64,000 nucleotides of DNA. Source: an uncultured Candidatus Saccharibacteria bacterium. Lineage in GTDB: Bacteria; Patescibacteriota; Minisyncoccia; Sungbacterales; HO2-52-23. The DNA is taken from assembly GCA_964585475.1 (NCBI GenBank), contig CAZPDF010000002.1, positions 1,631-65,630 on the forward strand, in the 5' to 3' direction. The notes below the pieces were generated by a model. It made no database searches. It saw only the letters and a list, made by a program, of their open reading frames with translations, and had not been told where the DNA came from. A program made the position numbers and the translations under genes. Positions 1,839-5,462 of the stretch are shown piece by piece. The number at the start of each line of letters is the position of its first letter. Position 1 is the stretch's first letter.

Positions 1839-4800
1839 ATGAGATATGACCCACAAAATATAGAAGATAAATGGCAAAAGAAGTGGCTCGAAGAAAAAAC
1901 TTATGAGCCCGATTTTAAGCTTGCCAAGCACCCTTTTTATAATCTAATGATGTTTCCTTACCCCTCCGCCGAAGGTCTGCATGTCGGGAATATGTATGCT
2001 TTCGCGGGGGCGGATATTTACGGAAGGTTTAAACGCATGCAGGGATTTGATGTATTTGAGCCGATAGGGCTTGACGGTTTTGGGATTCATTCAGAGAATT
2101 ATGCCTTGAAAATCGGCACGCACCCTGTGGAGCAGGCGCGTATTTCCGAGAAACGGTTTTATCGGCAGCTGGCAACGATCGGAAATGGGTTTGCGTGGCA
2201 GGAGCGACTCGAGACGTACGACCCCGAATATTACAAATGGACGCAGTGGATTTTTGTACAGATGTTTAAGCGCGGCCTGGCTTATCGCAAAAAGGCCTTG
2301 GTAAATTGGTGCCCGAGCTGCAAAACTGTGCTGGCGGACGAGCAAGTCATACAGAAATCAGAAATCCCTAGGTCGCCAGAGGCGACCTGGGTCCCGGCCG
2401 AGGGCCTAGGGACAAATTCCAAATCCCAACCCCCAAATCATAAACACGAAATACGAGTTGGCGTCTGCGAGCGATGCGAATCCGCCGTTGTAAAAAAAGA
2501 ACTAGAGCAATGGTTTTTCAAAATTACGGATTATGCCGAGCGGCTCCTTCGGAACTTAGAGAAAATAGACTGGTCTGAGAGGATTAAAATTGCGCAGAGG
2601 AATTGGATCGGGAAGTCAGAAGGAGCGCTGATTGATTTCGAAATCAAAACAAACCCGAATTTTGTGTTGCTTCACGGCTTCCGGGGTTCGCCGGAAGGAA
2701 GTTTTTTCCCGTGGCTTAAAGAGGAACTCCAAAAAAGAGGGTACAAAGTGCAGGCGCCCGAACTTCCGAGTTCAAAGAAACCCAATGTTCAGGAGCAGAT
2801 TGAATATGTTTTAAAAAATGTAAAGTTTGGCGAGAATACGGTGGTTCTAGGACATAGTCTCGGGTCTGTGGTTGCGTTGAAAACAATTGAGCACCTCCCG
2901 CGTCCGGTGAGAAAACTAGTTCTTGTCGCGGGCTTTTCAATTCCTCCGTCCAAACGAGACGAACCGACTAGTCGGGTGTATGAGAAAACATTCGACTGGA
3001 AATTTGATTTCAAGAAAATCCGCCAAAATATAAGCGGCAATTTTATATATCTTCGCGATTCAGGCGATGCGATCATAGCATCGAAAGAAGCTGATGTTCT
3101 GCAGGCGGCCCTGGGTGGAACAATTGTTGATTTCAAGGCGGAAGAGGAGCATGTCTGCGGGAAAAAAGAACCGGTAGTCCTGCAACATACTTTGGACACG
3201 ATCACGGTCTTTACTACTCGTCCTGATACGCTTTTCGGAGCGACCTATATGGTGTTGGGTCCGGAGCATACATTAATTCAAAATTCAAAATTCAAAATTC
3301 AAAATTTGAGCGAAGTTGACGAATATATTAAAAAGTCAAAGGACAAAACCGATGAGGAAAGAATCGGGGAGGGGAGAGAAAAAACGGGTGTTGAACTTAA
3401 GGGCATAAAAACGATAAACCCGGCCAACGGGGAAGAAATTCCGGTGTGGGCTGCGGATTATGTATTGGGCCACGTGGGAACGGGTGCCATCATGGCGGTT
3501 CCGGCGCATGATGAGCGTGATTTTGAGTTTGCGAAGAAATTTAAGTTGCCGGTGCGCGAAGTAGTGGTTCCGAACATCATTGACAGGAAAAATCCTCCCG
3601 TAGAAGGGAAAAAAACGGTTGAAAGGAGAAATATCCATGCGATCGTAAAAGATCCGAAGACGGGAAAATACCTTGCGCTGAAATGGAAAAAATTCGACTG
3701 GGTTACGTTTCCGATGGGTGGAATGGAAGAAGGAGAGGATGCCGTATCGGCTGCATTACGAGAGGTAAGGGAAGAAACGGGCTTTGTGAACCTGAAGTTC
3801 ATCAGGGTTTTGGACGGACAGGTGAGGGCGGAATACTTTGCGAGCCACAAAGATGAGAATAGGATCGCCTACACGACTGCCGTTGTTTTTGAGCTCGTTG
3901 ATCATACCCGGGTGGAAGTGGATAAAAAGGAAAAAGAAGTCCACGATGTGATATGGCTGGATGGATCTGAATTAAATTATGAAACTATGACCCATGCAGA
4001 AGTGGGATTTTGGAATGCGAAGCTGAATTCCGCAACCCCTGCCTATGTGGGCGGCGGAGTTTTGGTACACTCCGGAAAGTTCTCCGGTATGGACTCCGAA
4101 AAAGCGAAATGGGAGATTACAAAGTTTGTCGGCGGAAATAGAAAAGTGCAATATCGGCTACGCGATTGGCTGATTTCCCGCCAGCGTTATTGGGGTCCTC
4201 CGATTCCAATGATCTATTGCGAAAAATGTAATTGGCAGCCGGTGCCGGAAAAGGACTTGCCGGTGAAGCTGCCGGATGTTAAAGAGTTTCGGCCCACCGG
4301 AACAGATAAATCGCCGTTGGCGACCGTGGAAAAATTCTGGAAGGTTCGTTGTCCCAAGTGTAAATCATGGGCTAGGCGAGAGACGGACGTTTCCGACACA
4401 TTCCTTGATTCGGCCTGGTATTATATCGGATACCTTGCAAAAGAAAATTCAAAACCTGCCCCGCATCGTGCCGGAGGCTCTGGTGCGGGGTTCGAAATTC
4501 TAAATTCGAAATTCCGGCCGCGCGCGAAGCGCTGGCTGCCGGTAGATATGTATATCGGCGGAGCAGAACATGCGGTTTTGCATCTGCTTTATGTTCGGTT
4601 TCTTGCGATGGCGCTTTGCGATTGGGGAATGCTTCCCGCTGAGGAGCCATTTGAAAAATTCCGCGCGCACGGCCTTCTTATAAAAGACGGCGCCAAAATG
4701 TCAAAGTCGCGCGGGAACGTGGTAAATCCGGATGATTATATTCGCGCCTACGGCGCGGATGCGCTTAGGATGTATTTGATGTTTTTGGGACCGTTTGAGC

Positions 4801-5462
4801 AGGGAGGAGATTTTAGAGATACCGGGATCCGGGGAATTACAAGGTTTTTAGAGCGTGCTTGGCGTTTTTCTCAAGTAGTCATTCTGAGCGAAGCGAAGAA
4901 TCTCGATAGATCCTTCGGGCTTAGCCCTCAGGATGACATAAAGCGGTTACTCCACAAAACGATTAAAAAAGTTACAGAAGACATTGAGAATTTACAATAT
5001 AATACGGCTATTTCGGCGCTTATGATTCTGCTGAATAATTTGGAAGAAAATGCCGAAGCGGTTTCTCATGAGGATATCAAGGTGTTTCTCAAACTTCTGG
5101 CTCCGTTCGCGCCGCATATCAGCGAAGAATTGTATCAACAATTCTTCGGAAATCCTAAATCCGAAATTCTAAATTCTAAACAAATCCCAAATTCAAAATC
5201 TCAAAATCTCAAACAATTCCAGTCGATTCATCGTGAGCCGTGGCCAAAGTACGATCCAAAATTGATTAAGAAAGAAACTTTTGAGCTTATAGTGCAAATT
5301 AATGGCAAGGTGCGCGATCGATTTACGGTCGCAGTTACTACTTCCCAAGAAGAAGCCAGACGTTTGACCTTAGCGCGGGAAAAAGTTAAGATGACTCTTG
5401 GAGTTAATGAGCCGAAGCGGGTGATTTTTGTTCCCGGGCGGCTCATAAATATCGTTCTTTAA
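1839..5462 (+). CDS. leuS: Leucyl-tRNA synthetase, 1208 aa, with large in-frame domain insertions (alpha/beta hydrolase, NUDIX) and several repeat insertions
   Basis: MRYDPQNIEDKWQKKWLEEKTY...PYPSAEGLHVGN (HIGH-like)...CPSC...CERCE zinc motif...VFTTRPDTLFGATYMVLGPEH...GTGAIMAVPAHDERDFEFA...KMSKSRGN (KMSKS)...C-terminal IVQINGKVRDR. ATG at 1839 follows a stop in the upstream frame. Confidence 0.9.
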   Translation: MRYDPQNIEDKWQKKWLEEKTYEPDFKLAKHPFYNLMMFPYPSAEGLHVGNMYAFAGADIYGRFKRMQGFDVFEPIGLDGFGIHSENYALKIGTHPVEQARISEKRFYRQLATIGNGFAWQERLETYDPEYYKWTQWIFVQMFKRGLAYRKKALVNWCPSCKTVLADEQVIQKSEIPRSPEATWVPAEGLGTNSKSQPPNHKHEIRVGVCERCESAVVKKELEQWFFKITDYAERLLRNLEKIDWSERIKIAQRNWIGKSEGALIDFEIKTNPNFVLLHGFRGSPEGSFFPWLKEELQKRGYKVQAPELPSSKKPNVQEQIEYVLKNVKFGENTVVLGHSLGSVVALKTIEHLPRPVRKLVLVAGFSIPPSKRDEPTSRVYEKTFDWKFDFKKIRQNISGNFIYLRDSGDAIIASKEADVLQAALGGTIVDFKAEEEHVCGKKEPVVLQHTLDTITVFTTRPDTLFGATYMVLGPEHTLIQNSKFKIQNLSEVDEYIKKSKDKTDEERIGEGREKTGVELKGIKTINPANGEEIPVWAADYVLGHVGTGAIMAVPAHDERDFEFAKKFKLPVREVVVPNIIDRKNPPVEGKKTVERRNIHAIVKDPKTGKYLALKWKKFDWVTFPMGGMEEGEDAVSAALREVREETGFVNLKFIRVLDGQVRAEYFASHKDENRIAYTTAVVFELVDHTRVEVDKKEKEVHDVIWLDGSELNYETMTHAEVGFWNAKLNSATPAYVGGGVLVHSGKFSGMDSEKAKWEITKFVGGNRKVQYRLRDWLISRQRYWGPPIPMIYCEKCNWQPVPEKDLPVKLPDVKEFRPTGTDKSPLATVEKFWKVRCPKCKSWARRETDVSDTFLDSAWYYIGYLAKENSKPAPHRAGGSGAGFEILNSKFRPRAKRWLPVDMYIGGAEHAVLHLLYVRFLAMALCDWGMLPAEEPFEKFRAHGLLIKDGAKMSKSRGNVVNPDDYIRAYGADALRMYLMFLGPFEQGGDFRDTGIRGITRFLERAWRFSQVVILSEAKNLDRSFGLSPQDDIKRLLHKTIKKVTEDIENLQYNTAISALMILLNNLEENAEAVSHEDIKVFLKLLAPFAPHISEELYQQFFGNPKSEILNSKQIPNSKSQNLKQFQSIHREPWPKYDPKLIKKETFELIVQINGKVRDRFTVAVTTSQEEARRLTLAREKVKMTLGVNEPKRVIFVPGRLINIVL
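2385..2440. repeat. In-frame palindromic insertion in the leuS zinc-knuckle region
   Basis: aatccctaggtcgccagaggcgacctgggtcccggccgagggcctaggg contains IRs ccctagg/cctaggg and ggtcgcc/ggcgacc. It encodes EIPRSPEATWVPAEGLG between the CPSCKTVLADEQV and CERCESAVVKKE segments, which are contiguous in canonical LeuRS. Confidence 0.55.
2646..3170 (+). other. alpha/beta-hydrolase domain (RBBP9/YdeN serine-hydrolase type) inserted in-frame between the NWIGKSEGALIDF and ITVFTTRPDT segments of LeuRS
   Basis: FVLLHGFRGSPEGSFFPWLKEELQKRGYKVQAPELP...VVLGHSLGSVVALKTIEHLP...LVLVAGFS shows the HGxxGS start and a GHSLG nucleophile elbow. Canonical LeuRS has about 10 residues here, not about 175. Confidence 0.7.
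3275..3306. repeat. Low-complexity AAATTCAAAATTC tandem repeat, in-frame in leuS (IQNSKFKIQNL)
   Basis: ttcaaaattcaaaattcaaaattcaaaatttgag; same repeat type at 4487-4515, 5158-5215, 44770-44880 and 52580-52700. Confidence 0.7.
3622..3975 (+). other. NUDIX hydrolase domain inserted in-frame within the LeuRS CP1/editing domain
   Basis: GGMEEGEDAVSAALREVREETGF matches the Nudix box Gx5Ex7REUxEExGU exactly. It is flanked by canonical editing-domain segments GTGAIMAVPAHDERDFEFAKKFKLP upstream and AYVGGGVLVHSGKFSGMDSEKAK downstream. Confidence 0.75.
4487..4515. repeat. Low-complexity AAATTC-type repeat, in-frame in leuS (FEILNSKFRP)
   Basis: cgaaattctaaattcgaaattcc. Confidence 0.6.
4878..4937. 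repeat. In-frame palindromic hairpin element, family A, inside leuS
   Basis: gtcattctgagcgaagcgaagaatctcgatagatccttcgggcttagccctcaggatgac encodes VILSEAKNLDRSFGLSPQDD; same termini as 1087-1142 and 63802-63863. Confidence 0.75.
5158..5215. repeat. Low-complexity AAATTC/AAATCTC repeat, in-frame near the leuS C-terminus (SEILNSKQIPNSKSQNLKQ)
   Basis: ccgaaattctaaattctaaacaaatcccaaattcaaaatctcaaaatctcaaacaa. Confidence 0.6.

Follow-up and report, generated by a model that had tools for sequence, protein, structure and literature searches.

The window analysed here, a 64-kb stretch of gene-dense DNA from a Parcubacteria genome of the candidate phyla radiation (CPR; contig CAZPDF010000002.1), carries tandem arrays of 7-nt units, in frame within essential genes such as leuS, glyA, topA and mfd and as palindromes between genes. 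These heptamer repeats are real and non-random, and two assemblies show them alike. One family at least, (GAAATCC)n-GAAACAAAT, recurs in genes and at sites that are not related to each other, and in hosts as far apart as CPR bacteria and a relative of Gemmataceae, which argues for copy-and-paste and not for local slippage alone. On the reading that we consider probable, the repeats are copies or remnants of small, non-autonomous hairpin elements, to which slippage has been added and which selection has filtered. All the low-complexity repeats listed in a first-pass annotation of this DNA were found by Tandem Repeats Finder and in the sequence itself; the coordinates given there are exact or off by a few bases only. 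As that annotation stated, they lie in frame in essential genes and encode peptides rich in Asn, Ser, Lys and Gln; Pro and Glu are abundant as well. The genes concerned were assigned by Pfam, and rpsU from its sequence:

leuS, 1839-5462, plus strand
glyA, 17133-18410, plus strand
topA, 28920-31028, minus strand
mfd, 43311-45404, minus strand
HIT gene, 48830-49246
rpsU, 49319-49546
ybeY, 52171-52590
ftsA, 52715-53956

The closest LeuS homologues are 59-64% identical to that of the window and the closest TopA homologues about 73%; those with names come from metagenome-assembled genomes (MAGs) of Candidatus Sungbacteria, Liptonbacteria or Patescibacteria. The 90% clusters of LeuS, GlyA, TopA and HIT proteins hold one genome only, as an NCBI and an ENA assembly. 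Over 15.4 kb, the ENA contig (k139_71868, ERZ27284378) has 3 substitutions relative to the window and is free of indels; it is identical to the window over another 21 kb, and matches it at every array in the overlap. These two assemblies, the only ones found, are identical at the arrays, and look-ups of the proteins P0121 and P0123 returned no further contigs.

Arrays were detected with Tandem Repeats Finder, and the periods were counted by one uniform scoring scheme against shuffled sequence. The window holds 8 period-7 arrays against 0.05 in the shuffles; period 14 also gives 8, and every remaining period 0-2. Related CPR loci are similarly rich (3 period-7 arrays in 6.7 kb of L083, 5 in 23.7 kb of L084 and 4 in 6 kb of L030), as is a Calothrix locus with classical heptamers of the short tandemly repeated repetitive (STRR) type, which served as positive control (L009; 5 in 21.9 kb). 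The 71 LeuS loci from other bacteria (1.2 Mb), mostly from distant phyla and taken from the matches listed in a genome-collection scan with two generic LeuS peptide patterns, contain 10 period-7 arrays in all. Periods 6, 9 and 12 dominate there, as is expected for repeats in coding DNA. The earlier view that such insertions are unusual for bacteria thus holds in general, on the evidence of these 71 loci, but not for the lineage: in related Parcubacteria, the corresponding sites of LeuS, TopA and UppS hold arrays as well.

Two inserts of the window belong to the dispersed family:

5148-5221, plus strand, leuS site 3, in the linker ahead of the C-terminal domain; a composite array that encodes GNPKSEILNSKQIPNSKSQNLKQ
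44770-44865, minus strand, mfd insert of 96 bp, in the RNA-polymerase-interacting CarD_TRCF_RID domain

The leuS array starts with a 38-nt composite of five different units (5148-5185), GGAAATCC-TAAATCC-GAAATTC-TAAATTC-TAAACAAAT. It matches an insert in the topA gene of another genome (L089) at 37 of 38 bases, and the coding strand of the window's own mfd with 6 mismatches; the insert of one TopA protein (P0190), GNPKSEILNSKQI, is identical to LeuS site 3. The repeats had been described as microsatellite-like, a view that this recurrence contradicts for a simple, local kind of microsatellite. A 37-mer from the composite, made degenerate at seven positions, occurs in at least 120 JGI metagenome contigs and was not found in the viral contigs of IMG/VR.

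Family statistics rest on 107 non-redundant copies among the matches listed. Their left boundary is sharp, with no consensus 5' of the first unit. The 5' arm was defined as at least three units of the form K-AAA-T/A-Y-C ending in KAAACAAAT, then about four AAA-phased units: the 7-nt AAA phasing continues for about 30 nt 3' of KAAACAAAT. An inverted partner, ATTTGTTTC-GGATTTC (then GTGCTTC GGATTTC), accompanies 27 of the 107 copies, the other 80 having the 5' arm alone. Full copies form palindromes of about 125-215 nt, and some of them enclose GC-rich hairpins or a longer cargo; their termini, (G)AAATCC... and ...GGATTT(C), are inverted. An nhmmer profile built from 105 metagenome copies finds leuS 5149-5208 (E = 5e-11), mfd 44864-44800 on the minus strand (E = 3.8e-12) and the inverted arm of mfd, GATTTCGGATTTCGTGCTTCGGATTT (E = 1e-3). 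The other window arrays match it weakly or not at all: 30670-30642 (0.023), 4493-4511 (0.19), 52588-52642 (2.4), 2415-2456 (7.5) and 3282-3303 (9.6). Judged by these matches, leuS site 3 and the mfd insert are secure members of the (GAAATCC)n-GAAACAAAT family, and the other arrays of the window are of different heptamer families.

Site 3 of leuS consists of the 5' arm alone. The mfd insert, reported before as a block of roughly 110 bp at 44770, is a full hairpin copy through which the reading frame stays open. Its 5' arm encodes EILNTKSENRNKSEIQNSKFQN and its 3' arm DFGFRASDFF; it includes the GAAGCAC unit typical of the 3' arm in this family. The fold is strong in both orientations (z = -4.5 sense, -4.2 antisense), and the insert accounts for about 27 residues, as the Pfam RID match spans 82 residues for 55 profile positions.

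The family also has extreme copies. In L201, full elements stand in tandem at positions 3655-4100, at least two in number, with signs of a third in the translated ORF; they lie 5' of a protein that resembles a TolC-type outer-membrane channel by sequence. A 17-unit GAAATCC array in L126 reaches the contig end.

The copies have a broad range of hosts. Flank GC of the 107 copies is bimodal, at 0.32-0.49 and 0.55-0.73. With host genes assigned from conserved motifs beside the inserts, the low-GC group comprises housekeeping genes typical of the CPR: LeuS (sites 1 and 3), another class I aminoacyl-tRNA synthetase, class II aminoacyl-tRNA synthetase anticodon domains, GlyRS, both DNA ligase types, a LepA/EF-G-like GTPase, SecA, MurE/F, TsaD and RsmH. 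In the high-GC group, the element is in frame, with high third-position GC on both sides, in CarB, UvrA, an UvrD/AddB-like helicase, CstA and a Ser/Thr kinase. The CarB host is nearest to Gemmataceae (Planctomycetota), with 80-82% identity to proteins named at NCBI. Within Gemmataceae CarB, one linker holds the GAAATCC element in some proteins and very different hairpin peptides of 7-residue periodicity in others; even proteins that are 90-96% identical overall carry different inserts there. To judge from these sequences, Planctomycetes seem to have many families of heptamer-armed palindromes, and the class of heptamer elements is common to Patescibacteria and Planctomycetota, with rapid turnover.

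Between YETP and EDETRP, the CarB linkers of P0246-P0315 read, among others, RGQRSEVRGQRSEV..., ETRRQGDKETRR...VSLSPCLLVSLS and LQISDCRFQ...NLQSEISNLKS.

Reading frame matters little to such an array. Among low-GC hosts, 29 of 48 copies lie in long ORFs, and 26 of these 29 have the A-rich strand as sense strand, distributed over the three frames as 10, 10 and 6. The frames of a GAAATCC array translate as GNPKSEIRNPKQI, EIRNPKSEIRNKS and KSEIRNPKSETN, which are one hydrophilic 7-residue repeat in shifted phase, because 7 is coprime with 3. No unit of a coding array brings a stop into the coding strand, and for (GAAATCC)n none of the six frames contains one; whole hairpins can therefore be read through, as in mfd (...SEIQNSKFQN DFGFRASDFF) and CarB (...SDFGFRISD). 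The A/C-rich sense strand is also poor in structure, the topA insert being the best example.

Selection for heptads at the protein level was considered as the sole cause and rejected: the arrays are perfect at synonymous positions, and the same DNA occurs in three frames and between genes.

The remaining sites of leuS are the following:

2352-2440, plus strand, site 0, following LADEQVI at the Zn-ribbon hairpin tip
3275-3306, plus strand, site 1, in the editing domain; AATTCAA x4.6, perfect, encoding IQNSKFKIQNL
4443-4514, plus strand, site 2; a remnant, a nested hairpin, then an array

Three in-frame insertions had been proposed in leuS, at 3275, 4487 and 5158. All three repeats are present, and site 0 makes a fourth; site 0 and the two sites downstream of 3275 are insertions, and the one at 3275 is not. 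We compared the window gene with four orthologues (L082-L085) in a codon alignment, at 59-79% amino acid identity and 38-54% third-position identity, and its product with other Parcubacteria LeuS in an alignment of 21 proteins. In the latter, the site 1 segment is free of gaps throughout, with the pattern L-I-x-N-x-K-x-x-I-x-N-x-x-E-V, so that the array there is no insertion relative to orthologues. In all five leuS genes, site 1 arrays occupy the same codons, at lengths that agree within one codon: L083 has a perfect AATCTCA x5.3, and L082, L084 and L085 have degenerate heptamers. Identical repeats in distant orthologues had been named as grounds for giving up the earlier interpretation; at 3275 the position is matched exactly and the length within one codon, and the unit sequence differs.

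Sites 0, 2 and 3 are variable hot spots for inserts in the 21-protein alignment, other lineages having different low-complexity inserts there. At site 0, CAGAAAT x2.1 (2352-2366) and CAAATCC x3.9 (2413-2439) stand around a nested GC-rich palindrome (about 2365-2410), with a fold of z = -3.4. Its left edge, CAGAAA/CAAAAG, is common to all five leuS genes. Arrays of other units (TCAGGTA, AAGAGAC) follow in L084 and L085, in place of the CAGAAAT/CAAATCC of the window, and the ACAAATTCCAAA remnant also occurs in L082 and L083, both of which are devoid of the GC palindrome. Site 2 is made of a remnant, GAAAATTCAAAAC (4443-4455), a nested hairpin with ACCCCGCAC-type ends (4459-4491) and TTCGAAA x3.4 (4491-4514), which encodes FEILNSKF. 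The corresponding place holds AAATTCC arrays in L082 and L084, AAATCAA x4.3 in L083 and a GC-rich insert in L085; the window array, in the same phase, reads AAATTCN. The site 3 insert is missing from L082 and L083.

In L084 and L085, site 3 (alignment columns 1194-1230) is occupied by another repeat-hairpin, in which ACGCAGATAA repeats pair with ATCTGCG. It encodes TQINADGHADKRRYISENLRSNQRKS, a peptide that recurs in several more Parcubacteria LeuS. A third kind of element lies in frame in leuS at 4888-4935, a hairpin GTCATTCTGAG...CTCAGGATGAC that encodes VILSEAKNLDRSFGLSPQDD; other LeuS proteins have unrelated variable sequence at this position.

The nested hairpin of site 2 belongs to a second inverted-repeat family of the window, with ends ACCCCGCAC...GTGCGGGGT and variant ends ACCCCCACAC, which has about six window copies besides the one in leuS:

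ACCCCGCAC...GTGCGGGGT ends: 241-392, 4459-4491, 25757-25886, 43157-43305 and 48987-49053
ACCCCCACAC-type variants: 25626-25690 and 58190-58323

The HIT gene has one of these copies in frame (residues 53-75), and its Pfam HIT match takes up 117 residues for 94 profile positions.

LeuS itself, of 1207 residues, has extra domains on both sides of the editing domain: an alpha/beta-hydrolase (Ser_hydrolase/Abhydrolase_1) domain N-terminal to it (residues ~301-411) and a NUDIX domain C-terminal to it (~624-744). This architecture is common to dozens of Parcubacteria LeuS, some labelled only 'alpha/beta fold hydrolase'.

Arrays of still other units interrupt glyA and topA:

17876-17908, plus strand, glyA array, AATGTCA x4.3, encoding MSNVKGQMSK
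30638-30722, minus strand, topA insert, CGGCTTT x5 perfect (30638-30672) and GTTGGGA x4.1 (30692-30722)

Both had been annotated with partly different units. The glyA repeat, read as four copies of the 9-mer TGTCAAAGG, is a heptamer array; in topA, CGGCTTT has five perfect copies and not four, and the supposed octamer is the heptamer GTTGGGA. The glyA array falls within an insert of about 14 residues past the region of the pyridoxal phosphate (PLP)-binding lysine, seen as a 14-residue gap in alignment with the serine hydroxymethyltransferase (SHMT) structure 2dkj. A perfect 48-bp palindrome, TAAAAGAATCCTAGTCAAAAAACT/AGTTTTTTGACTAGGATTCTTTTA, at 17075-17122, lies 10 bp 5' of the glyA start codon.

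On the coding strand of topA, CTCCCAR x4 is followed by a 21-nt spacer and perfect AAAGCCG x5, together encoding SSQLPAPNSQQKGENSKKPKAESRKPKA. The insert has about 27 residues relative to a solved structure and lies between the Toprim domain and the next; an AlphaFold model of TopA (mean pLDDT, the predicted local distance difference test score, 79.6) shows it, as residues 102-128, without secondary structure and at pLDDT values below 50. The two arrays of the insert make up the arms of one degenerate palindrome. A 31-bp stem, in which each unit contributes 4 G-U pairs, forms on the antisense strand (z = -7.0), against z = -0.7 for the sense strand, and the fold shows the same strand asymmetry in two related genomes, L087 and L088. 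We read it as an in-frame palindrome of old age, whose pairing on the mRNA strand has been erased by transitions; an antisense structure kept by selection would be the alternative. Among 120 TopA homologues, a basal linker of 3-6 residues prevails and many others have diverse inserts.

Comparison of orthologous sites reveals how the arrays change. The TopA insert has a perfect CTCCCAG x4.4 with a degenerate AAGCCGA array in L087, and 8 AAGCCGA units in L088, where the window has 5; the three additional units amount to 21 nt and 7 residues and keep the frame. The suggestion that slippage could change the length of essential proteins is thereby borne out, on an evolutionary time scale. Arrays with changed units occur at two TopA sites across relatives, and in UppS at an offset of about 450 nt in both L082 and L084, again with different units. 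Since the arrays at one site are perfect and yet of different units, and silent sites are saturated, all copies of an array must have changed together. Length differences between alleles were seen only as multiples of 21 nt, and all observed alleles are in frame. The pattern of concerted unit change and three-unit steps is directly visible in the alignments and would be the signature of slippage or template-switch turnover under frame constraint.

Between genes, the repeats form hairpins and palindromes:

37671-37742, plus strand, intergenic hairpin, copy 1, AACTTCC/GACTTCC x4.4 G-U paired with TTGTTGG x4.9
39739-39810, plus strand, intergenic hairpin, copy 2, within the second copy of a 300-bp repeat
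49250-49315, AT-rich palindrome of 8-nt units, AATTCGTA x4.4
52582-52707, heptamer palindrome, AAACTCT/AAGTTCA paired with TTTTGAG/TTTAGAG units

The first hairpin folds on the plus strand (z = -5.8; -1.1 on the minus strand). Both hairpin copies belong to a 300-bp direct repeat (37555-37854 and 39623-39922; 99% identical, 2068 bp apart), whose copies lie 5' of the ORFs 37875-39587 and 39943-41436, which have no Pfam match; the repeat probably stems from duplication of the leader or promoter in a tandem pair of genes. Each 300-bp copy contains additional small hairpins beside the heptamer one.

The palindrome at 49250-49315, noted earlier as a repeat upstream of rpsU, fills the whole spacer between the HIT gene and rpsU and ends 3 nt short of the rpsU start codon; it folds on both strands (z = -5.4 plus, -7.1 minus). 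With its period of 8, it is outside the heptamer class in the strict sense. The inverted repeat reported at about 52580-52700 is also present, its arms (52582-52638 and 52651-52707) being 72% complementary (z = -4.9 plus, -4.4 minus). It reaches from the ybeY stop codon to 8 nt ahead of the ftsA start codon, and its units, among them AAACTCT, have stop codons in all frames, unlike every unit of the coding arrays. Consensus scans of the intergenic hairpins gave no terminator or promoter match, and tRNA-Leu is the only Rfam match in the window at gathering threshold.

A succession of three steps probably explains these observations. Elements whose arms consist of 7-nt units, with an approximate nAAAnnC phasing of the A-rich strand, and which fall into several families in the genome, would first be spread; for at least one family, (GAAATCC)n-GAAACAAAT with its second heptamer module, copies are seen in unrelated surroundings. 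The arrays would then turn over in place: orthologous sites keep an array, while its unit is replaced and homogenised in each lineage and its copy number shifts by three units at a time, likely through slipped-strand or template-switch replication. In essential genes, selection would finally act as a filter. It would retain copies that keep the frame, contain no stop codon and present the A/C-rich strand in the mRNA, giving a hydrophilic peptide of Asn, Pro, Lys, Ser, Glu and Gln and an unstructured message, and such copies would survive only in permissive surface loops. These loops would thus become hot spots in every lineage and gather other, nested small elements too; as they collect several kinds of element, their recurrent occupancy would need no site-specific targeting. 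Most likely, the elements represent selfish or neutral DNA, translated as disordered loops.

Several observations weigh against this reading. Dispersal is shown for the GAAATCC family only; the AATTCAA, AATGTCA, CTCCCAR/AAAGCCG and AAACTCT arrays match its profile weakly or not (E = 0.02-10) and could be of local origin. At leuS site 1, the length and the fixed Ile, Asn and Lys are kept in five lineages, so that there is constraint at the protein level. The antisense stem of topA is kept in three lineages and may have a function. Among 28 full-length copies, neither a target-site duplication nor a conserved target was seen. Three inserts of the window have flanking repeats of 6-7 nt, which are ambiguous: the ACAATTC pair of leuS site 3 keeps the frame, and GTTTCG (glyA) and CGATAG (topA) are spaced by a non-multiple of 3. 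Finally, neither the window ORFs scanned nor the annotation of the ENA contig contains a transposase or reverse-transcriptase domain; as no mobilising enzyme was found there, the word 'mobile' refers to distribution only.

It is possible, though we think it unlikely, that all arrays are local microsatellites, each slipped in place from an A-rich seed, their likeness being due to mutational bias and to the filter against stops. Lineage-specific homogenisation and three-unit steps at orthologous sites would be expected on this account, as would the diversity of units: 38 perfect arrays of at least three copies in the element-bearing loci (0.95 Mb) have about 33 different units, and several window arrays are outside the GAAATCC profile. 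It leaves unexplained a 38-nt composite with five different units in fixed order at non-homologous loci, in at least 120 contigs and at GC contents from 0.32 to 0.73. Nor does slippage lead one to expect palindromes with inner cargo, and the sharp left boundary, the conserved GAAACAAAT end and the GAAGCAC unit of the 3' arm speak against it too. For the GAAATCC family, local origin is already contradicted.

Selection by the host has a smaller chance still of being the explanation. The elements would then be RNA or DNA signals (for processing, attenuation, antisense RNA or a protein with 7-nt-spaced binding) or useful flexible linkers. Their positions, immediately before rpsU and ftsA and in the duplicated leader of paralogous ORFs, would suit such roles, as would strong folds (z of -4 to -7), the strand-asymmetric G-U stem of topA in three lineages and the occupancy of LeuS site 1 in all five lineages compared; the TAACTGA repeats of Beggiatoaceae have also been proposed as regulator-binding sites (PMC4679880). 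But the units vary by site and by lineage, with nothing in common beyond the phased AAA, and presence varies among close relatives, as in the 3-6-residue basal linker of TopA and in CarB at 90-96% identity. One element occurs in dozens of unrelated genes and in any frame. The TopA insert is predicted to be disordered, and the hairpins match no terminator-like consensus.

We give very little credit to contingency loci, that is, to phase-variation switches by slippage of one unit. A perfect array of 4-5 copies whose unit length does not divide by 3 is a classical substrate for phase variation (PMC2651432, PMC4692102). However, LeuS, TopA, SHMT and Mfd are encoded by single-copy, essential housekeeping genes with the arrays in mid-ORF, and since a slip of one unit would shift the frame of an essential gene, such a switch is implausible; all alleles are in frame, lengths change by multiples of 21 nt and the two assemblies are identical. 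Misassembly or chimeric contigs, to which low-complexity repeats in a MAG are prone, are refuted for practical purposes by two assemblies that agree base for base at the arrays, by ORFs open across them, by independent genomes with arrays at the same codon positions and by the presence of the family in more than 100 independent contigs.

Among described repeats, the cyanobacterial STRR sequences resemble the elements in having tandem 7-nt units in 2-10 copies, several families per genome and arrays that sometimes form hairpin arms; heptanucleotide hairpins were reportedly described by Costa and co-workers in 2002 in the tRNA-Leu intron of Nostoc. STRR1-3 have the consensus units CCCCAGT, TTGGTCA and CAACAGT and are intergenic repeats of heterocystous cyanobacteria. 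Unlike them, the units found here are AATTCAA, GAAATCC, AATGTCA, AAAGCCG, CTCCCAA and others, most arrays are inside ORFs, and the host belongs to the CPR.

Rickettsia palindromic elements (RPEs) lie in frame in housekeeping genes and are translated as fold-compatible peptides (PMC10969869 and the literature cited there). Like RPEs and intragenic miniature inverted-repeat transposable elements (Coxiella QMITE; enterobacterial repetitive intergenic consensus, ERIC), the elements described here are small, non-autonomous, palindromic, present in many copies and in frame in unrelated housekeeping genes; the copies in mfd, topA, CarB and UvrA behave in this way. They differ from RPEs in that their arms are tandem heptamers and not unique sequence, in the in-place homogenisation and varying copy number of the arrays, in the six open frames of the main family, in their CPR and planctomycete hosts, and in the frequency of half-elements. 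A target-site duplication was not seen at 28 full copies, against ambiguous flanking repeats at three window inserts, and no transposase was found in the window ORFs scanned.

Heptamers are over-represented in some bacteria, those of Nostoc and Xanthomonas being mainly intergenic and under-represented in coding DNA (PMC4692102), whereas most copies here are in frame within essential genes. The TAACTGA repeats of marine Beggiatoaceae, some Cyanobacteria and Bacteroidetes (PMC4679880, PMC4853749) have a single fixed unit in 2-6 direct copies, with stops in both directions (TAA, TGA), and are mostly intergenic; they have been proposed to bind a regulator (PMC4679880). With these our elements share a patchy spread across phyla that suggests horizontal transfer, and some copies just 5' of start codons (49250-49315 and 52582-52707). 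In contrast, they use many units, which are stop-free, mostly coding and often palindromic; Tandem Repeats Finder detected no TAACTGA unit among the arrays of the window or of related loci. The simple sequence repeats of contingency loci in Haemophilus and Neisseria are likewise short, perfect repeats in ORFs, with a unit length not divisible by 3 and with slippage as the presumed source of copy-number change, but the arrays here are in mid-ORF in essential genes, exist only in in-frame states and at one site keep their length within one codon across deep divergence. Repetitive extragenic palindromic (REP) sequences and bacterial interspersed mosaic elements (BIME), which REP-associated tyrosine transposases (RAYT) mobilise, are extragenic, 20-40 bp long and tagged by GTAG or CGTC at the end (PMC3733652). 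They too are small high-copy palindromes for which no target-site duplication is expected; ours measure 70-215 nt, are phased by heptamers, are often intragenic and start with (G)AAATCC.

None of the compared systems joins palindromic arms built of heptamers, in-frame residence in essential genes and a distribution over CPR and planctomycetes. Full-text searches, whose coverage leaves out most subscription journals, retrieved no description of these repeats, of their sequence or of heptamers in CPR or Planctomycetes, and a widespread class of hairpin repeats has apparently gone undescribed so far. A wider claim can be made only tentatively, and we lean against rather than towards it: that mobile, frame-neutral and selfish heptamer-armed palindromes form an undescribed class common to Patescibacteria and Planctomycetota, moved or generated by an activity working in 7-nt steps that could also underlie the STRR, TAACTGA and Xanthomonas/Nostoc repeats. 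On this view, the period of 7 would render them translatable whatever the frame, with six possible frames for (GAAATCC)n, and so allow them to enter essential genes (aminoacyl-tRNA synthetases, topoisomerase I, Mfd, UvrA, CarB), to persist there and to turn over.

If our interpretation is correct, many lineage-specific inserts and low-complexity loops in housekeeping proteins of CPR bacteria and planctomycetes would be translated selfish DNA and not adaptations, which would matter for annotation, for structure prediction and for phylogenies inferred from these marker proteins. It would provide a second, independent case, beside the RPEs of Rickettsia, of palindromic elements in frame in essential genes, with a rule for their tolerance: a period coprime with 3, no stops, and the A/C-rich strand in the mRNA. 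The puzzle of bacterial heptamer repeats would be tied to a system in which filled and empty sites are clearly distinct and some hosts, the Gemmataceae, can be cultivated, and the arrays would be natural markers of recent divergence in uncultivated lineages.

Elsewhere in the window, a class II (B12-dependent) ribonucleotide reductase, encoded at 58279-62244, is split by an intein with a LAGLIDADG homing-endonuclease domain.

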